26,965 nucleotides of DNA from Kiritimatiellia bacterium (lineage in GTDB: Bacteria > Verrucomicrobiota > Kiritimatiellia > RFP12 > UBA3636): the NCBI GenBank assembly GCA_017450425.1, contig JAFSUV010000069.1, positions 1 through 26,965 of the forward strand, given 5' to 3'. A program made the position numbers and the translations under genes. Shown here in pieces: positions 2 through 8,584 of the stretch. Each line of letters begins with the position of its first letter. Within the stretch, counting starts at the first letter, position 1. The notes under the pieces were generated by a model. It was not told the origin of the DNA. It made no database searches and saw only the letters and a program-made list of their open reading frames with translations.

Positions 2-385
2 GTGCTCGTCGAAGGCGACGACATGACCGAGCCGATCGCCGACGAGACGCGCTCGATCCTCGACGGGCACATCATCCTCTCGCGCAAGCTCGCGCAGCAG
101 AACCACTATCCGGCGATCGACATCCTCGCGTCCGTCTCGCGCTGCCAGTCGGCCATCATTCCGAAGGACCACAAGGCTGCGGCCGCGAAGCTGCGCGCGC
201 TCCTGGCCAAGTACGCGGAAGTGGAGCTCCTCTTGAAGATCGGCGAATACAAGAAGGGGACAGACCCCGAGACGGACGAGGCGGTCGCGAAGAACGCCGC
301 CGTCAACAACTACCTGAAGCAGGGGCTCGACGAAAAGCCCGTCTACGCCGACTCCATCCAGAAGCTCAAGGAGGCCGTCGCGTAA
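2..385 (+). CDS. sctN: Type III secretion ATPase SctN (YscN/FliI family), C-terminal part; 5' end lies outside the window
   Basis: [47 protein letters not shown] is the conserved C-terminal region of T3SS ATPases. Its stop TAA (383-385) overlaps the next ATG. Confidence 0.95.
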
Positions 386-858
386 TGGCGTACCTCCTCC
401 AGCCGCTTTTGAGAATCCGCACGATGCGCGAGGACCGCGCGTCGGGCGAGCTCGTCGCGGCCAAGCGCGATCTGGCGCTCGCGGAGGAGGCGCTGGCGGC
501 ACGGCAGAAGGATCTGGCGGACTGGGAGGCGACGAAGGAGGCGCGGCGCGACAGGATCTACGATGCGATCATCGGGCGCGAAGTGAGCCGCGACCAGATT
601 GACCTGGCGAACGAAGGGGTGGCGCGGATCGACGAAGAGGGCGTCCTGAAGGCGGACAACGTCAAGCGCGCCGAACAGGAGCGCAAGAAGCGCGAAGAGG
701 CGGCGGACGTCGCCCGCCAGAACTTGAATCTTGCTACGAAAAACCGCATGAAGATCGATGAACACAAGGCAGTGTGGATGAAGGAGGACGCCCTGGCGCA
801 GGAAGCGCGCGCCGAGGGCGAACTCGAGGACTTCACGGTGAGGAAGGAAGAAATCTGA
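385..858 (+). CDS. sctO: T3SS stalk protein SctO (YscO-like coiled coil), 157 aa
   Basis: Directly follows sctN (TAATG overlap). Highly charged, predicted all-helical. N-terminal LLRIRTMREDRA and acidic C-terminal EGELEDF resemble YscO-family termini. Confidence 0.8.
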   Translation: MAYLLQPLLRIRTMREDRASGELVAAKRDLALAEEALAARQKDLADWEATKEARRDRIYDAIIGREVSRDQIDLANEGVARIDEEGVLKADNVKRAEQERKKREEAADVARQNLNLATKNRMKIDEHKAVWMKEDALAQEARAEGELEDFTVRKEEI

Positions 859-3200
859 TGTTTGCAGTAGAAGGTCTGAATGTCGAAGGTCTGAAGGTCG
901 ATGGTTCAAGGTCGTCGGCGCTTTCCTCCTTTAGCGCGTTGCTCCCCGACGCCTCCGGGCTCTCCCCGCTTCCATTGCCGAGTGACGACGCCGTACGCCG
1001 CTTCCAGAGCGCAATGGATGTGGAAGAGCCGTCCAATGGCGCTGGCCAGAAGGACGAAGGGCGGAAAGTCGAATGTCCTCTTAGCCGCAAAGAACGCATG
1101 GATCGCAAAGAGGAGCCCGCTGTTCTACAAGAGCCGGTCTTTCCGCTCGTCCAGAAAATCGTTTCGGATGCACCGGCTGCGCCAACCGTGAGGATTGCCC
1201 CTGTTTCTCCGGAGCAGGTGGACGCCCTTGCCCCGGTTGACTATTTCACCGCCTCCGACGGCACGGCGCTCCCTTATCGCCTGCATGTCCCGGCGCTGCC
1301 GGAATCGCTGCAGGTTGAAGGTTCCAAGCTTGAAGGTTCTACGTCATCCTCGCCTCAGCGTGAAAAAACGGCCGACCTTCGACTTTCCGACCTTCGACCT
1401 TCTACGCCCTCCCCGGTGTTCCCGCTGGTCCTTTTCATGCACGGCGCCGGAACGCGCGGCGACGACGGCAAGGCGTTCGCCGGCAACATTTCCTTCCAGT
1501 GCCTTCTCTCCCAGGTCACGGAAAACACCCCGGCGATTGTCCTCGCCCCGCAGTGCCCCGACGGGGAGAAGTGGGTCAACACCCCGTGGGGGGAGAAAGT
1601 CCACGACTTCGAGCCGGCACCCTCGCGCTACATGGGCGCGGCGCTCGAGCTTCTCGACCGGACCCTTGCGACGCAGCCCATCGACCGCTCGCGCATCCTG
1701 GTCTGCGGCAACTCGATGGGCGGCTACGCCACGTGGGACGTCGTTTCGCGCCGGCCCGGACTCTTCGCGGCGGCCCTGCCGGTCTGCGGCGGCGGCGACG
1801 CGGCGAAGATGCCGGAATTCGACGACATCCCCGTATGGGCCGTCCACGGCGGCGCGGACGGTACCGTGCCGGTGGAGAACTCCCGCGCGCTCGTTTCCGG
1901 CCTTCGCGCCAATCCGGCGCGCTCGGCCGAAACACGCTACACGGAAATTCCCGACGCCGGGCACGATGTCTGGACATACGCCTTCTCGGATCCGCAAATC
2001 CTCTCCTGGTTCTTTTCGAAGACCCGCGCCGCGACGGCGCCGTCGAAGGCGATCGAGCCGATATCCGTCGAGGCGGCGGCCGCGCTCTGTCCGTCCCGCC
2101 TCTACACCGCACCAGACGGCTCCACGATTCCGTACCGCGTCCACATTCCGGAAAACGCGGCTGACGCCGCCGCTCGAGCGGGGGCGCCCGGTCTGCCGCT
2201 CATCCTGTTTCTGCATGGCGCCGGCGAGCGCGGCGCGGACACCGAGCCGCTTGTGCGCTTCCCCACGATCCGCCACCTGCTCGCGCGCAACGCGATGGTG
2301 GAGGACGCGGAACGGGCAATCGTCATCGCCCCCCAATGCCCGGCGGAAGAACGGTGGGTCGATACGTCATGGGGCGAAACGGCACATGTTTTCAACGAAA
2401 ACCCCGCAAAGCCGCTTTCGCTGGCGCTCTCGCTGCTTGACCACGCCGTCGAAACCCTTCCGGTTGACCGTTCGCGCGTTTACGTCTGCGGCGTATCCAT
2501 GGGCGGCTACGGCACGTGGGACGCCCTGGCGCGCCGGCCGGAAACATTCGCGGCCGCGCTGCCCGTCTGCGGCGGGGGCTCAACCGAGGCCGTGGCCCGC
2601 GCAGGGCAAGTGCCCGTCTGGGTCTTCCATGGCGCGGAGGACACTGTCGTCCCCCCCGACAATTCGCGCAACCTTGTGGCCGCAATGCGCGACGACCCCG
2701 CGCGCACGGCTGAAACGCGCTATCGCGAATTTCCGGACGTCGGCCACGACAGCTGGCTGAACGCCTTTTCCTCGCCCGAAGTCCTCGGCTGGCTCTTCGC
2801 CCAGCGCCGGGAAGGGCAGGGGGATCAGTTGGCAGCCGACCTCCGGCCTTCCGACCTGCGACCTTCCGACCTGCGACCTTCCGACCTTCAGTCTTCGGTG
2901 TCCTCTCTCGCCGATGCGATTGCCGCCGAAATCGCGGCGACGCCGGCGCTTGCAAGCGGGGACGGGGAAATCCGAATCGTCCTCAAGCCGACTATGCTGG
3001 ACGGTTCCGAAATCCACCTTTCGGCCAGGACAGGCGAACTGACAGTCGCCATTACGCCGGCGACGCCGGAGGCCGCCGCGCTGGTCGCCGCCGCGCTGCC
3101 GCACCTTGAAACCGCGCTTGCGGCGCACTCGAGGGCTTTCCACCATGTCGCGATCTCAATCGCGCCAGCCAAGAAAGGAAGAAATGATGAAACCGCTTGA
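858..3200 (+). CDS. sctP: T3SS needle-length ruler / substrate-switch protein SctP (YscP/FliK-like) containing two internal alpha/beta-hydrolase domains, 780 aa
   Basis: Lies between sctO and sctQ. Start ATG 858 overlaps the sctO stop (TGATG) and is preferred over the track's 774. C-terminal GEIRIVLKPTMLDGSEIHLSARTGELTVAI...LPHLETAL resembles the T3S4 domain. One uninterrupted frame. Confidence 0.8.
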   Translation: MFAVEGLNVEGLKVDGSRSSALSSFSALLPDASGLSPLPLPSDDAVRRFQSAMDVEEPSNGAGQKDEGRKVECPLSRKERMDRKEEPAVLQEPVFPLVQKIVSDAPAAPTVRIAPVSPEQVDALAPVDYFTASDGTALPYRLHVPALPESLQVEGSKLEGSTSSSPQREKTADLRLSDLRPSTPSPVFPLVLFMHGAGTRGDDGKAFAGNISFQCLLSQVTENTPAIVLAPQCPDGEKWVNTPWGEKVHDFEPAPSRYMGAALELLDRTLATQPIDRSRILVCGNSMGGYATWDVVSRRPGLFAAALPVCGGGDAAKMPEFDDIPVWAVHGGADGTVPVENSRALVSGLRANPARSAETRYTEIPDAGHDVWTYAFSDPQILSWFFSKTRAATAPSKAIEPISVEAAAALCPSRLYTAPDGSTIPYRVHIPENAADAAARAGAPGLPLILFLHGAGERGADTEPLVRFPTIRHLLARNAMVEDAERAIVIAPQCPAEERWVDTSWGETAHVFNENPAKPLSLALSLLDHAVETLPVDRSRVYVCGVSMGGYGTWDALARRPETFAAALPVCGGGSTEAVARAGQVPVWVFHGAEDTVVPPDNSRNLVAAMRDDPARTAETRYREFPDVGHDSWLNAFSSPEVLGWLFAQRREGQGDQLAADLRPSDLRPSDLRPSDLQSSVSSLADAIAAEIAATPALASGDGEIRIVLKPTMLDGSEIHLSARTGELTVAITPATPEAAALVAAALPHLETALAAHSRAFHHVAISIAPAKKGRNDETA
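867..917 (+). repeat. In-frame 7/8-nt tandem repeat (T)GAAGGTC at the sctP 5' end, encoding VEGLN-VEGLK-VDGSR
   Basis: Units GAAGGTC, TGAATGTC, GAAGGTC, TGAAGGTC, GATGGTTC, AAGGTCG read directly from the sequence. Confidence 0.7.
1239..2027 (+). other. Alpha/beta-hydrolase domain 1 within SctP (COG4099 predicted peptidase/esterase type)
   Basis: Motifs LPYRL, PLVLFMHGAG, VLAPQCP, IDRSRI, nucleophile elbow GNSMGG (Ser codon 1713-1715), HGGADGTV (Asp) and GHDVW (His). Boundaries are approximate. Confidence 0.9.
1314..1401. repeat. Imperfect inverted pair of heptamer tracts within hydrolase domain 1
   Basis: GTTGAAGGTTCCAAGCTTGAAGGTTC (from 1314) followed by CCGACCTT-CGACTTT-CCGACCTT-CGACCTT (1372-1401). 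Confidence 0.7.
2097..2810 (+). other. Alpha/beta-hydrolase domain 2 within SctP (paralogous to domain 1)
   Basis: Motifs IPYRV, PLILFLHGAGERG, VIAPQCP, VDRSRV, GVSMGG (Ser codon 2496-2498), HGAEDTVV and GHDSW. Boundaries are approximate. Confidence 0.9.
2836..2895 (-). repeat. In-frame 15-nt-period (8+7) repeat CCGACCTG-CGACCTT, encoding ADLRP-SDLRP-SDLRP-SDLQS
   Basis: Four consecutive 15-nt periods. The CGACCTT core is the reverse complement of the AAGGTCG core at 867-917. Confidence 0.85.
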
Positions 3201-4161
3201 AATCCTCTCCACGCTCCCAAAGTGGGCGAATGCCACGCCGGACGCGATCATCGACTCGCCGGCGTTCGCAATGCCGTGCCGCCTTGGCGAGGAACCGGCC
3301 GTCATCCGCCCCGCGTCCGTGGCACCGGCGGCGGCGGAAACGCTGGCTCTTTCCGTGGCATTCGGCGACGAGCCTCACACGCTCGGCATTGCCCGTTCCC
3401 CGCGCTTTCCCGACCTCGACAAGCTCTGGGACGGCCGCGCCGACGTGCCTGAACCGATCCTGCTTGCCCTCGTCGAACGCGAGTGCGGGCCGCTTCTGCA
3501 ACTGCTCGAAAACGCCGTCAGGAAGCAGCTGCGGCTCGTGGGCATTTCACGCAGAGGCGCAGAGGAGGAGGAGGCGCGGAGCGATGGCACGGAGGACCCT
3601 TCCGGCATCGCTCTCTGTGTCGCCGCTCCTCGGCGCGAGGAAAACGACGCGCAGCCCATCTGTTTTTCGCTTACGCGAAGCGCCACCGTTGTCTCCGCGT
3701 TTGGCGCGCTCCGCAACCTCGACCTGGCGCACGAGTCGATCCGCTCGCAGACGCTTCAGTCCGAGGTTGAATACGCCGCCTTTGCGATGCCGGAAGCCGA
3801 CATCGCCGCCATCTCGCCCGGCGACGCGGTGATGCTCCCGGAAATCGGCTCGATCCAGCCGCGTCTCATAATCGACGGGCGGTTCGTCTGGGATGAGGGC
3901 GGCGTCGCGCCATACGGAGACGACGGAATGTGCCGCGTGCGCGGTGTCGAAGCAAAGGTGGTTTCGCTGGGCGAACTGTTCGATGCGGCAGGAGAGTTGA
4001 AAGTTGAAAAGTTGAAAGTTGAAAGTTATAAGGGTGAAGATTGCCGCGACGGACTTCAACTGCGGCTTCTTCGCAACGGCAAAGCCGTCGCCTCCGGCCG
4101 CTTCGGCCGCCTCGGCGACCATCCCGCACTCCTCGTTGAAAGTGAATTTGGCGGCCGATAG
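3187..4161 (+). CDS. sctQ: Divergent T3SS sorting-platform protein SctQ (YscQ/FliN SPOA family), 324 aa
   Basis: Lies between sctP and sctR. SPOA-like segments IAAISPGDAVML and LRLLRNGKAVASGRFGRLGDHPALLV. Purine-rich RBS AAAGGAAG precedes ATG 3184/3187. Similarity is weak, so the call rests partly on synteny. Confidence 0.65.
   Translation: MKPLEILSTLPKWANATPDAIIDSPAFAMPCRLGEEPAVIRPASVAPAAAETLALSVAFGDEPHTLGIARSPRFPDLDKLWDGRADVPEPILLALVERECGPLLQLLENAVRKQLRLVGISRRGAEEEEARSDGTEDPSGIALCVAAPRREENDAQPICFSLTRSATVVSAFGALRNLDLAHESIRSQTLQSEVEYAAFAMPEADIAAISPGDAVMLPEIGSIQPRLIIDGRFVWDEGGVAPYGDDGMCRVRGVEAKVVSLGELFDAAGELKVEKLKVESYKGEDCRDGLQLRLLRNGKAVASGRFGRLGDHPALLVESEFGGR
3549..3636. repeat. Degenerate octamer (RCGCAGAG) tract plus inverted copies inside sctQ
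   Basis: ACGCAGAG 3549, GCGCAGAG 3557, GCGCGGAG 3574, GCACGGAG 3587; reverse-type CTCTGTGT 3613 and CTCGGCGC 3629. Confidence 0.4.
3993..4028 (+). repeat. 36-nt in-frame AAAGTTG tandem repeat in sctQ (ELKVEKLKVESY)
   Basis: AGAGTTG-AAAGTTG-AAAAGTTG-AAAGTTG-AAAGTTA (7+7+8+7+7). AT-rich within a GC-rich gene. Confidence 0.85.
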
Positions 4162-4205: not shown

Positions 4206-4916
4206 ATGTTCCAGACAAACCCTTTCACTCTGATAGTCCTCTTCGTGGGACTGTCCCTGCTGCCGTTCGTGGCGATGATCGCGACGAGCTACCTCAAGAT
4301 CGTGGTCGTGATGTCGCTCATCCGCAATGCGCTCGGCATCCAGTCGATCCCGCCGAACATGGTGATCAACGCGCTCGCGATGATTCTCACGTTCTACATC
4401 ATGGCTCCGATGGCGAGCGAATCGTGGCAGATAATCGCCGAACGTCAAACGTCGAAAGTCGAAAGCCGGCAGGCCGCGAGCGGACAGGCGGAAGGCGCGG
4501 CAGGATCTGCGACCCTGGACCTTGGACTTTCGACCTCTGAATTCGCGGAAGCGGCCGAGCCGTTTCGCAGGTTTCTTTCGGAGCATACGTCCGTGCGCGA
4601 ACGGGCGTTCTTCGTCAACACGGCGGAAACGCTGTGGGGCAAAGACGGGGAACCGGCCGAGGTCGATCCGGAGAGCTTCTACATCCTTCTTCCGTCGTTC
4701 TGCGTGTCTGAGCTTACGAAAGCGTTTCAGATAGGCTTCCTCGTATATTTGCCGTTCATCGCGATCGACATCATCGTGTCGAACATCCTGCTCGCAATGG
4801 GCATGATGATGGTGTCGCCCGTCACGATATCGCTGCCGTTCAAGTTGCTCCTCTTCGTGATGGTGAACGGCTGGACGCTCCTTATCCAGGGTCTCGTGAG
4901 GGGGTACGCGATATGA
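4206..4916 (+). CDS. sctR: T3SS export apparatus subunit SctR (YscR/FliP family)
   Basis: LSLLPFVAMIATSYLKIVVVMSLIRNALGIQSIPPNMVINALA and YLPFIAIDIIVSNILLAMGMMMVSPVTISLPFKLLLFV are family hallmarks. There is no FliP-type N-terminal signal peptide. Confidence 0.97.
   Translation: MFQTNPFTLIVLFVGLSLLPFVAMIATSYLKIVVVMSLIRNALGIQSIPPNMVINALAMILTFYIMAPMASESWQIIAERQTSKVESRQAASGQAEGAAGSATLDLGLSTSEFAEAAEPFRRFLSEHTSVRERAFFVNTAETLWGKDGEPAEVDPESFYILLPSFCVSELTKAFQIGFLVYLPFIAIDIIVSNILLAMGMMMVSPVTISLPFKLLLFVMVNGWTLLIQGLVRGYAI
4440..4538. repeat. Inverted pair of heptamer tracts inside sctR (GAAAGTC-type / GACTTTC-type)
   Basis: GAACGTC-AAACGTC-GAAAGTC-GAAAGCC (4440-4467), a 43-nt spacer, then GACCCTG-GACCTTG-GACTTTC-GACCTCT (4511-4538). 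Total 99 nt. Confidence 0.7.
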
Positions 4917-5179
4917 GTCAGGCGCAGATACTCGACTATGCGAGGATGTGCCTCGTCATCGTGCTTCGGCTGTCGCTCATCCCGATAGTGGTGGCGACGG
5001 TCATCGGCATCCTTGTCTCGCTGCTGCAGGCGCTCACGCAAATTCAGGAGCAGACGCTTGGCTTTGCAGTGAAGCTCATCGCCATTTCGCTGACGCTTCT
5101 CGCCTGCGCCTCGTGGATGGGTTCGTCGCTCATGCTCTACACGCAGGACATCTTCAACAGCTTTGCGCTTCTGAGATAG
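4913..5179 (+). CDS. sctS: T3SS export apparatus subunit SctS (YscS/FliQ family)
   Basis: 88 aa, two hydrophobic helices, VATVIGILVSLLQALTQIQEQTLGFAVKL motif. ATGA overlap with sctR. Confidence 0.97.
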   Translation: MSQAQILDYARMCLVIVLRLSLIPIVVATVIGILVSLLQALTQIQEQTLGFAVKLIAISLTLLACASWMGSSLMLYTQDIFNSFALLR

Positions 5180-5182
5180 CGG

Positions 5183-6004
5183 ATGCCCTACGTTGAATTC
5201 CATCGATGGATCTTGGCGGCGGTCCTTGCCATGGCGAGGATCGGCGGGGCGTTCGCCATCTGCCCGGCGCTTGCGGATTCGATGATACCGGGCGTGGCGC
5301 GTCGGGCGGCGACGTTCGCCTTCGCGGTCATAGCGATCCCGTTCATCCACGCCGGGATGCCGCCCGGCGAACCGGTCGTGTGGGGCTTCGCCCTTCTCGC
5401 CCTCAAGGAGGCGCTGATCGGCTTCATGCTCGGCTTCTTCAGCGCAGTCCCGTTTTGGGTCGCGGAGAACGTGGGCAACTTCATCGACAACCAGCGCGGC
5501 GCGACGATGGGCGAAGTCTATTCGCCGCTTTCCGGCGCGCAGGTTTCGACGACGGGCATTTTCTTCACGCAGATCGTTTCGACGATCTTCTTCACTTCTG
5601 GCGCGGTGTTCCTGCTTCTCGCCGCGCTCTACAAGAGCTATGCCGTCTGGCCGGTCTTCCCCGCCCCCTCTGTTTCTCAGCTTTCAACTTTCAACTTTCC
5701 AACTTTCAACGTATCTTTCTCCCCCGACGCGCCGGTGCAGATTCTCGGAACGCTCGACGGAATGCTGAAGACGACGGTCGTCATCTCGGCGCCCGTCATC
5801 ATCGTGATGTTCCTTGCGACGATCGGCCTCGGGCTCGTCAACCGCACCGCGCCGCAGCTCAACGTCTTCTTCCTCTCGATGCCGGTCAAATCCGCCCTCG
5901 GCGTCGCCATGCTGATCCTCTACCTGCCCTTCATCATGGACATGCTCATGTACACCAGGGACGCCGCCATCCTCGACCCGGTGAGGAAGCTGCTGGGCGG
6001 GTAA
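5183..6004 (+). CDS. sctT: T3SS export apparatus subunit SctT (YscT/FliR family)
   Basis: KEALIGFMLG, GNFIDNQRGATM and GLVNRTAPQLNVFFLSMPVKS motifs; polytopic hydrophobic profile. Confidence 0.97.
   Translation: MPYVEFHRWILAAVLAMARIGGAFAICPALADSMIPGVARRAATFAFAVIAIPFIHAGMPPGEPVVWGFALLALKEALIGFMLGFFSAVPFWVAENVGNFIDNQRGATMGEVYSPLSGAQVSTTGIFFTQIVSTIFFTSGAVFLLLAALYKSYAVWPVFPAPSVSQLSTFNFPTFNVSFSPDAPVQILGTLDGMLKTTVVISAPVIIVMFLATIGLGLVNRTAPQLNVFFLSMPVKSALGVAMLILYLPFIMDMLMYTRDAAILDPVRKLLGG
5678..5713 (-). repeat. 36-nt in-frame CAACTTT tandem repeat in sctT (QLSTFNFPTFNV)
   Basis: CAGCTTT-CAACTTT-CAACTTT-CCAACTTT-CAACGTA (7+7+7+8+7). The core is the reverse complement of the sctQ AAAGTTG tract. Confidence 0.85.
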
Positions 6005-6152
6005 ACGAACCGAAGCGGATTCGATGGGAAAAATGGACAATCAAGATCAGGTCCGGGGCAGGGTTCGCCGCCAGAAGGAGCAGGATTTTCGCGCGGATCG
6101 GGTGCCGTGCGGGAAAAGCCAGGATTCCGGGCCGGCGCGATTTGAGCCGGAG

Positions 6153-6224
6153 GGTAGGACGAGCAGGACGGGTAGGACCAGCAGGACCAGCAGGACTGGT
6201 AGGACGAGCAGGACTGGTAGGACG
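6153..6224 (+). repeat. 9-nt tandem array 1: 8 units of RGYAGGACN
   Basis: ggtaggacg, agcaggacg, ggtaggacc, agcaggacc, agcaggact, ggtaggacg, agcaggact, ggtaggacg. Confidence 0.95.
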
Positions 6225-6245
6225 TTGCGCCGGCTTTTACCAGCC

Positions 6246-6407
6246 AGTCCTGCTTGTCCTACTCGTCTTACCAGTCCTGCTCGGCCTACCGGTCCTGCTT
6301 GTCCTACCGGTCCTGCTAGTCCTACCCGTCCTGCCGGTCCTACCCTTCCTGCTAGTCCTACCCGTCCTGCCGGTCCTACCGGTCCTGCTCGTCCTACCCT
6401 TCCTACC
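6246..6407 (-). repeat. 9-nt tandem array 2: 18 units of NGTCCTRCY, inverted relative to array 1
   Basis: Runs from agtcctgct (6246) to cttcctacc (6399-6407) in exact 9-nt register. Separated from array 1 by 21 nt. Confidence 0.95.
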
Positions 6408-6436
6408 CCTATCCCAAGCTGCGGAGGTGTTTGACG

Positions 6437-7129
6437 ATGGCCGAGATTCCCAAGATTGTCCTGCCGCATGGTGGCTACAAGAACCTCATCGTCTATCGCA
6501 AGAGCGATGTCGTCTATGAGGGGACTGTCGTGTTCTGCCGCCGGTTTCTTCCCGCCCATGGCGACCGCACGGTTGATCAGATGGTCCAGGCCGCGCGCTC
6601 GTGCAAGCAGAACATCGCGGAGGGCAGTTCGGCGTCAGGGGCGAGCAAGGAGACCGAGATCAAGCTCACCAACGTCGCGCGGGCGACGCTGGACGAGCTG
6701 ATGGAGGACTACCTCGACTACCTTAAGCGGAACGGACTCGCTGAATGGGAGGCCACCGACGAGCGTTCGCGCTATGCGCGCGCCTTCGCCAAAGGGCACA
6801 ACGACTGGAGCGGCTGGAAGGAGCTGTTCGAGACACGCCCTGCCGAGACTCTGGCCAATCTCATGCTGACGATATGCAACCAGACGAGTTACATGCTGGG
6901 GCGCATGATCGAGCGGCAGGAAGCGGACTTCAAGAAGTTCGGCGGCGTCCGCGAGCGCATGCACGCAGCCAGAACAGCCGCCAGGGCCGACGAATTCAAC
7001 AGAGGGCTTTACAGCCATCTTGCCGAGGCGAAGACGCCCGATGAATTGAACACCCGGGCCGAAAACCTGCGCCGCGAAATCAGCCGCATAGTCTGGGGCA
7101 TCGAGAGAAAGCGGGGTTGGCGGCAATGA
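6437..7129 (+). CDS. Four-helix-bundle protein with suffix domain (TIGR02436/TIGR04258 type; 23S-IVS-protein/Avd-like fold), 230 aa
   Basis: GGYKNLIVYRKS, FCRRFL, DRTVDQMVQAARSCKQNIAEGS, SKETEIKLTNVARATLDEL and suffix ANLMLTICNQTSYMLGRMIERQEADFKKFGGVRERM match the family pattern as recalled. GGAGG RBS at 6423-6427. Confidence 0.9.
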   Translation: MAEIPKIVLPHGGYKNLIVYRKSDVVYEGTVVFCRRFLPAHGDRTVDQMVQAARSCKQNIAEGSSASGASKETEIKLTNVARATLDELMEDYLDYLKRNGLAEWEATDERSRYARAFAKGHNDWSGWKELFETRPAETLANLMLTICNQTSYMLGRMIERQEADFKKFGGVRERMHAARTAARADEFNRGLYSHLAEAKTPDELNTRAENLRREISRIVWGIERKRGWRQ

Positions 7130-7142
7130 AGGGCGAAAAGAG

Positions 7143-7385
7143 AGCAGGCCTGGCAGGACGAGCGGGACCGGCAGGACCGGCAGGACTGGCAGGACCGGCA
7201 GGACTGGCAGGACTAGCAGGACGAGCAGGACTAGCAGGACGAGCAGGACGAGCGGGCCTGGCAGGACTGGCAGGACCGGCAGGACGAGCAGGACGAGCGG
7301 GACCGGCAGGACCGGCAGGACTAGCAGGACCGGCAGGACTAGCAGGACGAGCGGGCCTGGCAGGACTAGCAGGACGAGCAGGACC
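7143..7385 (+). repeat. 9-nt tandem array 3: 27 units of RGCRGGMCN
   Basis: 243 nt in exact 9-nt register, from agcaggcct (7143) to agcaggacc (7377-7385). Confidence 0.97.
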
Positions 7386-7393
7386 AACAGGGC

Positions 7394-7429
7394 TGTCCTA
7401 CACGTCCTACGCGTCCTACACGTCCTGCA
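7394..7429 (-). repeat. 9-nt tandem array 4: 4 units of YGTCCTRCR, inverted relative to array 3
   Basis: tgtcctaca, cgtcctacg, cgtcctaca, cgtcctgca. Ends 12 nt before the sctU RBS. Confidence 0.9.
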
Positions 7430-7453
7430 TTGCCCCCCCTCAGGAGGCTGCCC

Positions 7454-8545
7454 ATGGCTGAGTCTTCCGGCGAAAAGACCGAGATGCCGACCCCGAAGAA
7501 GCTGCGCGACGCGCGGCAGAAGGGGCAGGTGTGCACCAGCAAGGACATAGTCTCGACAGCAATCCTGATCGTCCTCTTCGCGCTTCTTGGCTGGATGGGC
7601 GTCGCGCTTGTCGATGACGGGGCCATGCTCCTCGACTACATCGGGGACAGGATGCGCGGCGATCCGTTCGACGCGACGCGTCCCGCCGCCGGCCTGACCG
7701 TCATGATCGTCTGCAAGTACTCGTTCATTTTCGTGCTGATTGCCGCCGTCATCGGGATCGCCGCCAATGTGGCGCAGATCGGGTTCCTCTTCACTTTCGA
7801 TCCGATCATCCCGAAGCTGGAGAAGCTCAATCCGGTGGAGGGTGCGAAAAAGATATTTTGCATGAAGAACCTCTTCGAGTTCTTCAAAAACGTCGTCAAG
7901 GTTTCGTTCCTCGGCTATCTAATCTACAAAATCATCTGGGCGAGCGTGCCGGAACTTCTCACGATGTGCTACGGCACGATCGACGACGTGTTCCCGAGTC
8001 TCAAGCTCATGCTGAAACGACTGGCGGTTTACACCGCCTTCGGCTACATCGTCATCGCCATCGTCGATCGCCTCTTCCAGGGGCGGAACTTCACCAAGCA
8101 GATGATGATGACGAAGGACGAGGTGAAGCGCGAATACAAGGAGATGGAAGGTTCGGGCGAGGTCAAACAGGCACAGCGCCAGTTCCGCGACGAAATCCTC
8201 AACGGCCCGGATCCGGCGAAGGCGGCGAAAAAGGCCAGCGTGGTCGTGACGAATCCGACGCGCCTTGCGGTCGGCATCCGCTACGACGCGGAGGAGGCGC
8301 CGCTGCCGCGCATTTGCGCCATGGGCGCGGGCAAGGTCGCCAAAATCATCCGCGAGACCGCGCTCGCCGAAGGCATCCCCGTCATGGAAGACCGCCCGCT
8401 CGCCCGCGCCCTCTACGCCAACGGGCGGCTCGAAGACTTCGTGCCGGAAGATTTTCTCGAACCCGTTTCCGAAGTTTTGAAATGGGCCAAGCGGCTCGAA
8501 GACGCCAGAAGGGAAGAGGAGGAACTCGACAATGTGCAGCTGTAG
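7454..8545 (+). CDS. sctU: T3SS export switch protein SctU (YscU/FlhB family), 363 aa
   Basis: SGEKTEMPTPKKLRDARQKGQV, MMMTKDEVKREYKEMEG and VVVTNPTRLAVGIRY motifs. AGGAGG RBS at 7442-7447 precedes ATG 7454. Confidence 0.97.
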   Translation: MAESSGEKTEMPTPKKLRDARQKGQVCTSKDIVSTAILIVLFALLGWMGVALVDDGAMLLDYIGDRMRGDPFDATRPAAGLTVMIVCKYSFIFVLIAAVIGIAANVAQIGFLFTFDPIIPKLEKLNPVEGAKKIFCMKNLFEFFKNVVKVSFLGYLIYKIIWASVPELLTMCYGTIDDVFPSLKLMLKRLAVYTAFGYIVIAIVDRLFQGRNFTKQMMMTKDEVKREYKEMEGSGEVKQAQRQFRDEILNGPDPAKAAKKASVVVTNPTRLAVGIRYDAEEAPLPRICAMGAGKVAKIIRETALAEGIPVMEDRPLARALYANGRLEDFVPEDFLEPVSEVLKWAKRLEDARREEEELDNVQL

Positions 8546-8584
8546 TCGCAAACGCCGAAACGCAGCGGCAAAAGGGAATCGAAA

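Follow-up and report, generated by a model that had tools for sequence, protein, structure and literature searches.

What could two catalytic domains be doing in the middle of a protein that presumably measures a needle? The question is raised by the gene sctP, at positions 858 to 3200 of a contig of 26,965 nucleotides from a Kiritimatiellia bacterium (JAFSUV010000069.1, assembly GCA_017450425.1), which we analysed at its full length and call the window. Type III rulers are the textbook case of a protein that measures as an unfolded tape, and here the position of the tape is occupied by two esterases. An earlier reading of the window, made by a model from its letters alone (the sequence-only reading), knew of no ruler with internal enzymes, and the literature that we searched likewise held no report of a ruler, or of any protein with a T3S4 substrate-specificity switch domain, that carries an enzyme domain. 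The answer towards which we incline is that the gene encodes a genuine SctP of a non-flagellar type III secretion system (T3SS) whose spacer captured a native esterase: the esterase would be threaded unfolded, would count as ruler length, and would be active once secreted.

The gene lies between sctO and sctQ, and its parts are the following.

858..3200, forward strand: sctP, a single open frame of 780 codons and a stop, with an N-terminal module, esterase 1, esterase 2, a repeat linker and the T3S4 domain
858..1022, forward strand: conserved SctP N-terminal module, amino acids 1-55, with motifs common to esterase-bearing and esterase-free relatives
870..914, forward strand: in-frame array of GAAGGTC type with a period of 15 nucleotides, directly 3' of the start codon
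1185..2036, forward strand: esterase domain 1, amino acids ~110-393, with H195 (oxyanion HG), S286 (1713-1715), D334 (1857-1859) and H369 (1962-1964)
1305..1415, forward strand: repeat-derived loop insertion in domain 1, amino acids 150-186, a gap of 31 residues in the comparison with domain 2
2058..2816, forward strand: esterase domain 2, amino acids 401-653, with H453, S547 (2496-2498), D595 (2640-2642) and H630 (2745-2747)
2817..2882, forward strand: linker of DLRPS repeats, amino acids 654-675; an array of GACCTTC type covers 2836-2889
2883..3176, forward strand: T3S4 substrate-specificity switch domain, amino acids 676-773, recognized by Pfam HpaP and by its fold, with LKPxxLDG as a possible variant of the signature

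The open frame of 780 amino acids, the two paralogous alpha/beta-hydrolase domains, the full Ser-Asp-His triad in each of them and the T3S4-like C-terminus had all been described in the sequence-only reading, and all of them stand; the span that it gave to the hydrolases, 1239-2810, is right to within a few codons. Its low-complexity N-terminus of 127 amino acids survives in part: the region is partly of low complexity, but residues 1-55 form a module that is conserved in the family. The motifs of this module are M..A(V/I)(S/T)(L/F)D, SGLxPLxLP and A(V/I)RRFxxAM, the last of which is a helix, and we presume that it provides the export signal and the tip-side part of the protein. In an AlphaFold2 model of the 780 residues, whose mean predicted local distance difference test score (pLDDT) is 79.5, the first ~105 residues are mostly disordered, and the sole confident helix among them is at residues 43-53 (pLDDT 84).

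The two hydrolase domains are modelled with confidence, at residues ~110-393 and ~401-653, with pLDDT mostly above 85; the loop insertion of domain 1 is disordered in the model (pLDDT below 50 at residues 158-175), and its length varies between samples. Pfam Peptidase_S9 (70.8 bits for a cut-off of 22.6) and DLH (45.3 bits for a cut-off of 21) each match two stretches of the protein, and Abhydrolase_2 reaches 35.9 bits for a cut-off of 23. The catalytic motifs are GNSMGG (S286), HGGAD (D334) and GHD (H369) in domain 1, and GVSMGG (S547), HGAED (D595) and GHD (H630) in domain 2; identity between the two domains is 44% (E 1e-79). The nearest solved structure is the Thermotoga maritima esterase 3doh, found both with phmmer (E 3e-38) and with Foldseek (E 6e-20, ~30% identity over the alignment), and further solved relatives include the metagenomic LC-Est1 (3wyd) and a phospholipase/carboxylesterase. 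By profile and by motif, both domains belong to the 3doh-like carboxylesterases of the alpha/beta-hydrolase fold. The fold and the aligned Ser-Asp-His positions are shared with 3doh and LC-Est1, which are free-standing enzymes, whereas the module of the window is internal to a protein of a secretion apparatus and bears a repeat-derived loop insertion. A more specific name, extracellular short-chain polyhydroxyalkanoate depolymerase (NCBIfam NF050058), was rejected: with 113.4 bits for an equivalog cut-off of 150, the module is related to that family and cannot be named as a member.

The motifs HG, GxSMGG, HGxxD and H are complete in all 19 of the 19 SctP-embedded esterase domains. Judging from these sequences, we consider it quite probable that the SctP esterase is catalytically active. 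In other bacteria, the module is found in the company of SGNH esterases, a CE4 deacetylase, CBM9, and glycosidases of families GH78, GH12 and GH3; because of these partners, its substrates are likely to be acetyl or similar esters on glycans.

At the C-terminus, Pfam HpaP (PF09483) matches residues 682-768 with 31.2 bits for a cut-off of 23.8, and is the sole T3S4 model above its curated cut-off. Flg_hook falls just under (27.0 bits for 29.8), and the needle-length model yscP (NCBIfam TIGR02514, E 2e-5) reaches 24.8 bits for a cut-off of 76.5, a weak sequence similarity to the T3S4 domains of Ysc type. The model of the domain has the order alpha-beta-beta-beta-alpha-beta, that is, two helices on a four-stranded sheet, as in the T3S4 fold. 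When this domain is modelled separately and submitted to Foldseek, the first rank is 5cuk, the switch domain of Pseudomonas aeruginosa PscP (E 1.9e-4, template modelling scores 0.67/0.74, root-mean-square deviation 2.5 A), and the second is 2rrl, the C-terminal domain of FliK; all lower ranks have E >0.05. A sequence profile of the domain, compared with the PDB, ranks the FliK domain first. T3S4 domains carry a signature of the type P-x-L-G (PMC2835726); those of the clade studied here have an invariant LKPxxLDGS, which the profile match sets against LHPEELG of FliK with an offset of one residue.

Because of the T3S4 domain and the position of the gene, a role as SctP is the default, and that the gene is a genuine SctP we hold to be very probable. 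Such proteins are early substrates that interact with SctU to switch the class of exported substrates (PMC6140923, PMC2835726). With the SctP/FliK rulers (YscP, PscP, InvJ, Spa32, FliK) the protein of the window has in common the slot between sctO and sctQ, the C-terminal T3S4 fold, a conserved N-terminal part and a middle of variable length; the difference is that the described rulers have a disordered or helical spacer (PMC6140923), and this one has two catalytic domains.

Is the fusion real? Logan contigs from four different studies were aligned to positions 400-3700. A contig of run X1 covers 1328-3700 with zero differences, one of run X5 covers 1159-3558, those of run X2 cover 568-2109 and 2088-3699, and those of run X3 cover 1139-2561 and 2533-3290. 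Mapping across the junctions had been suggested along with the sequence-only reading, and independent contigs span every one of them: the boundary between the N-terminus and domain 1, those of domain 2 with domain 1 and with T3S4, and that of sctP with sctQ. The sole differences in length among the contigs are in-frame units of 15 nucleotides, one contig having 15 fewer at 1372 and one 15 more at 2873. A second metagenome assembly (locus L102) contains, between sctO and sctQ, a 74%-identical gene of 853 amino acids with the same two esterases. The fusion is not an assembly artefact.

Arrays of GAAGGTC/GACCTTC type, with a period of 15 nucleotides, occur within sctP in both orientations and all in frame, at 870-914, 1048-1077, 1372-1402 and 2836-2889. 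The same-orientation copies at 1372 and at 2836, 2851 and 2866 are 1464, 1479 and 1494 nucleotides apart, all multiples of 3, and flank most of both esterase domains; no deletion between these copies was seen among the contigs.

How widespread is the arrangement? The SctPs of this group share the N-terminal module and the T3S4 domain, and the region between the two varies greatly. Orthologues with zero, one or two hydrolase domains, which the sequence-only reading had proposed to look for, were found in all three classes. Two esterases are present only in the window gene and in its L102 counterpart. A single esterase is present in at least 15 distinct SctPs of 535-1397 amino acids, with or without repeats, which belong to the same Kiritimatiellae clade and always occupy the sctO-P-Q slot. 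The linker from esterase to T3S4 is ~7 to 210 amino acids long across the family, ~7-33 in several relatives and ~25 in the SctP of the window. Esterase-free SctP frames measure ~260-830 amino acids from stop to stop, or ~400-830 from the start codon in the aligned set. Among the 150 best cluster representatives at 50% identity that were matched by the T3S4 domain, 6 have the esterase, and in ten long esterase-free SctP relatives (654-1894 amino acids) no other Pfam domains were found. Within the genus, the fusion is present in 4 of 12 species representatives (G000, G001, G004, G007), and 5 others (G002, G005, G008, G010, G011) have a T3S4 domain but no close copy of the esterase anywhere in the assembly. 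Several sctP genes of the genus, those of G002, G005 and G008-G011, are interrupted by contig ends, and gene calls in repeat-rich sctP can be in error, P0004 being an example. A single recent fusion event, which the sequence-only reading had envisaged as a possible outcome, does not describe these data: the fusion is conserved across the clade.

The call P0004 (521 amino acids) comes from locus L107. An sctP cut there by a reverse gene was considered and rejected as an artefact of gene calling: the frame is open over 4373-8566, the true SctP has 1397 amino acids with an ATG that overlaps the sctO stop, and the database entry is a truncated call. In this protein, tandem repeats of ~40 residues make up ~700 amino acids, and the N-terminal module occurs once more immediately ahead of the esterase; the reverse-strand "gene" of 717 amino acids inside the repeats, at 4470-6623, is probably spurious. 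Other unusual chains involve the T3S4 domain. At locus L017 (G008:C105, 1-620) an open frame passes from a metallophosphoesterase-like N-terminus straight into the latter half of a T3S4 domain, with the joint at the conserved LDGS motif; chimeric assembly or recombination is the probable cause. Multiple T3S4 (Flg_hook) domains per chain are found in metagenomic proteins: five in P0198 (1894 amino acids), and three weaker ones in P0074 (720 amino acids).

Where did the esterases come from? In the tree of the esterase module, 17 SctP domains of the single-copy type form one clade (support 99/92), whose sister group consists of the free esterases P0017, P0018 and P0020, located outside T3SS loci. 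P0017 shares 60% identity with domain 1 of the window, whose identity to the one-copy orthologues and a free esterase is 52-60%. Domain 2, of the window and of L102, branches just outside this group (100/99), and for this reason does not represent a recent tandem duplicate of domain 1; the identities also reject a recent tandem duplication, since they are lower between the two domains, at 44%, than the 52-60% just given. The approximately unbiased test does not reject one common origin for all the embedded domains (p 0.35). The GC content at third codon positions is 0.79-0.81 in both esterase domains, as in the neighbouring genes: the domains thus look native, and a recent foreign origin is not supported. 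In a tree of SctR-S-T, a quick version rooted by outgroup, esterase-bearing and esterase-free operons are interspersed, and at least five changes are needed, two of them forced by well-supported branches. A monophyletic module in interspersed operons suggests one main capture of the esterase and, later on, recurrent loss or replacement of alleles.

The comparison with L102 gives, for the ratio of nonsynonymous to synonymous substitution rates (dN/dS), 0.27 in domain 1 (84% amino acid identity), 0.17 in domain 2 (90%), 0.11 in T3S4 (88%), and 0.27 in the N-terminal part (60%, full of indels). Since the motifs are kept in every embedded copy and selection is purifying, the chemistry seems to matter, and the domains appear to be more than filler; on the same grounds we predict an active extracellular short-chain carboxylesterase. 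The sequence-only reading had argued from the intact triads against pure spacer use, and the triads together with purifying selection indeed favour the first of its options, a hybrid of ruler and enzyme.

On secretion, on catalysis and where it takes place, and on length control, we infer the following course of events. A variable spacer, between the N-terminal module and T3S4, would have captured a native short-chain carboxylesterase in one genus-level clade, and the lineage of the window would carry a second, older paralogous copy. SctP would be exported N-terminus first, as an early substrate. While T3S4 occupies the export gate, the esterase chain next to it would be inside the channel, where it would have to be unfolded because the linker to T3S4 is so short, only ~7-33 residues, in several relatives; unfolded in the channel at that moment, its residues would consequently count towards ruler length. 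Once released, the two domains would fold and become active outside the cell, close to the needle tip or at it, and each completed needle would deliver a fixed dose of esterase. Export of the SctP esterase with action outside the cell is, in our estimate, somewhat more probable than its contrary.

Several facts weigh against this course of events. Domains with a stable fold can obstruct type III export, and the esterase would need either to remain unfolded or to be unfolded. Most SctP relatives have long tandem repeats rich in proline and valine, and no esterase; since most close relatives do without it, the secretion system can dispense with the esterase. None of the nearest free relatives (P0017, P0018 and P0020) has a signal peptide, and two of the three are fused to a CE4-type deacetylase: the ancestral enzyme may, for lack of that signal, have worked inside the cell. 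Genes sctV and sctJ were not found in this genome bin, which is 56% complete, and just one RNA run contained 8% of the sampled words.

Among the competing explanations, the one that survives best, unlikely as we judge it, is a switch of the HpaP/HpaC type without ruler function, whose main service would be to carry an esterase effector out of the cell, needle length being set otherwise. To our knowledge, the HpaP members of plant pathogens are switch proteins that have not been shown to act as rulers, and, as the best Pfam family here is HpaP, the word ruler is used for this SctP as a putative label. The likeness to HpaP of Ralstonia and HpaC of Xanthomonas lies in the PF09483 match above cut-off and in the HrpB1- and HrpB2-like neighbours in the operons of relatives; the HpaP and HpaC proteins that we know of are short and have no enzyme domain, whereas the SctP of the window has 780 amino acids and two esterases. 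HrpP of Pseudomonas syringae is a T3S4 protein that is itself translocated into host cells, where it has effector-like activity, and its behaviour is atypical for a ruler (PMC2835726, citing Morello and Collmer 2009; PMC10269811). It offers a precedent for T3S4 proteins that take on a further role in the host (PMC10269811), but differs in having no catalytic domain and in acting by binding a host kinase. What speaks against a switch that does not measure is that the operons encode a needle-type SctF, and that the middle of the family consists of long, fast-changing tandem repeats, as in rulers of the YscP type.

It can also be conjectured, although we find it improbable, that the esterases are both cargo and parts of length control. 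The "folding pulls the ruler out" model of length control (PMC6140923) would then apply: the distal domain would fold on leaving the needle tip and pull, and the proximal domain, still unfolded in the channel, would be the tape. Discrete classes of needle length would be set by how many domains there are (none, one or two) and by where they lie (linkers of 7-210 amino acids), and each finished needle would free one esterase at the tip, which could remove acetyl esters from the glycans that coat the target cell, ahead of translocon deployment.

To the same low degree we credit a self-directed enzyme, working in the cytoplasm or during passage of the envelope in the manner of the FlgJ muramidase, for example by deacetylating cell-wall esters where the needle crosses. 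FlgJ, the flagellar rod cap, is an exported assembly factor that is fused to a muramidase in some lineages and not in others (PMC8517470, PMC4752226). The resemblance is that of a type III-exported assembly factor joined to an enzyme, and the dual- and single-domain forms of FlgJ show the same patchy pattern of fusion (PMC8517470); the differences are that FlgJ is a cap and not a ruler or switch, that its enzyme is a glycoside hydrolase, and that its substrate is known, the cell's own peptidoglycan. A self-directed role would also fit the free relatives without signal peptide, two of them bearing the deacetylase, and the presence in the genome of genes for peptidoglycan synthesis (Mur ligase). 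However, SctP moves within a channel that is closed, and no entry of it into the periplasm is known; the protein has no peptidoglycan-binding or lytic domain, and the closest solved relatives of the module are general carboxylesterases.

We give still less credit to the idea that the esterases are spacer only, bulk polypeptide that provides ruler length and whose chemistry is irrelevant. They do fill the exact slot that variable tandem repeats fill in relatives, the overall lengths of SctPs with and without esterase overlap, and the esterase was lost or replaced several times. On the other hand, the catalytic motifs are intact in 19 copies out of 19; between the window and L102 the esterases evolve at dN/dS 0.17-0.27 with 84-90% amino acid identity, as compared with 60% and many indels in the true spacer and N-terminal part; and repeats, freely used in the clade, make a cheaper spacer. 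The related proposal of the sequence-only reading, a spacer for an unusually long needle, is not supported, because enzyme-free relatives have equally long SctPs built of repeats (~400-830 amino acids). As for an assembly chimera or a decaying pseudogene, which a fragmented metagenome bin, 56% complete, and short repeats inside the gene might bring to mind, its probability is practically negligible, given the contigs of four studies that cross the junctions, the orthologous two-domain gene of L102, and a frame that is open and under purifying selection.

Returning to an esterase captured by a ruler, we note that the orthologous rulers of this clade form a natural series, with zero, one or two well-folding catalytic domains in the position of the tape. 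Such a series could discriminate between models of length control, static ruler versus folding-driven pulling, and bears on how readily the export apparatus handles stable folds. The machinery that builds the needle may have an enzyme among its exports. Should the exported esterase be active, a component of the apparatus would double as an enzyme in fixed stoichiometry with needle completion, and domain capture would be a route to the origin of effectors. The finding points to interactions directed at hosts or prey among gut Kiritimatiellae. Loci based on SctR place the lineage in uncultured rumen and gut Kiritimatiellae (RUG, RGIG and UBA bins from yak, goat, sheep and deer), and the runs that contain sctP are animal gut metagenomes. 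A limited literature search found no paper on the secretion systems of Kiritimatiellae themselves.

The surroundings of sctP in the window are as follows.

385..858, forward strand: sctO, 157 amino acids, Pfam YscO 62 bits; its stop overlaps the sctP start
841..857, forward strand: ribosome-binding motif AGGAAGGAAGAAAT, 5' of the sctP ATG, with a 93%-identical copy at 3172-3185 before sctQ
3187..4161, forward strand: sctQ, intact, overlapping the end of sctP by 14 nucleotides; it is in the frame of the open reading frame (ORF) 3106-4161, with 66% identity over 326 amino acids to SctQ of L102
4206..6004, forward strand: sctR, sctS and sctT (Pfam FliP, Bac_export_3 and Bac_export_1)
7430..8545, forward strand: sctU (Pfam Bac_export_2, 335 bits), the expected partner of T3S4, with NPTR instead of NPTH

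The start codon of sctP, ATG at 858, overlaps the stop of sctO in CTGATG, and is preceded by the ribosome-binding motif AGGAAGAAAT, which recurs before sctQ. The sctO product preceding sctP has 157 amino acids also in L102, L105 and L106, and 156 in L107. In relatives, the operon reads sctD, sctF, HrpB1-like, HrpB2-like, sctJ, sctK, sctL, sctN, sctO, sctP, sctQ, sctR, sctS, sctT, sctU and a gene for a sigma factor of the extracytoplasmic function type, the HrpB2-like gene being probably sctI. A sigma factor gene of that type also follows sctU in the window, and the remaining genes of the window are housekeeping: a thiamine pyrophosphate enzyme, an ABC-F protein, a nucleoside phosphorylase and a Mur ligase.

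Two long overlapping frames, 3106-4161 and 3197-3832, run across sctQ. The second was considered as sctQ and rejected as the wrong frame; it still yields tblastn matches in relatives, because the underlying DNA is conserved. The autocleavage site of SctU, usually NPTH, is NPTR also in the loci L014, L022, L027 and L029 of the Kiritimatiellae clade, and NPTH in the other relatives checked; a motif scan alone also flagged NPTR in the distant loci L051, L057, L058 and L072.

The genes sctS, sctT and sctU, normally contiguous, are broken up by unrelated genes in several relatives (L105:11560-14792; L107:11806-12357), among them those of a four-helix protein resembling 23S_rRNA_IVP/bAvd, of a PDDEXK_3 nuclease, and an ORF of 670 amino acids. 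In the window, a cassette is inserted between sctT and sctU, at 6024-7429. Between sctN and sctO, L102, the closest relative, has a gene for a D12-class DNA methyltransferase and an uncharacterized one of 342 amino acids (L102:3340-4404), and the window, in 1-384, begins inside the counterpart of the latter.

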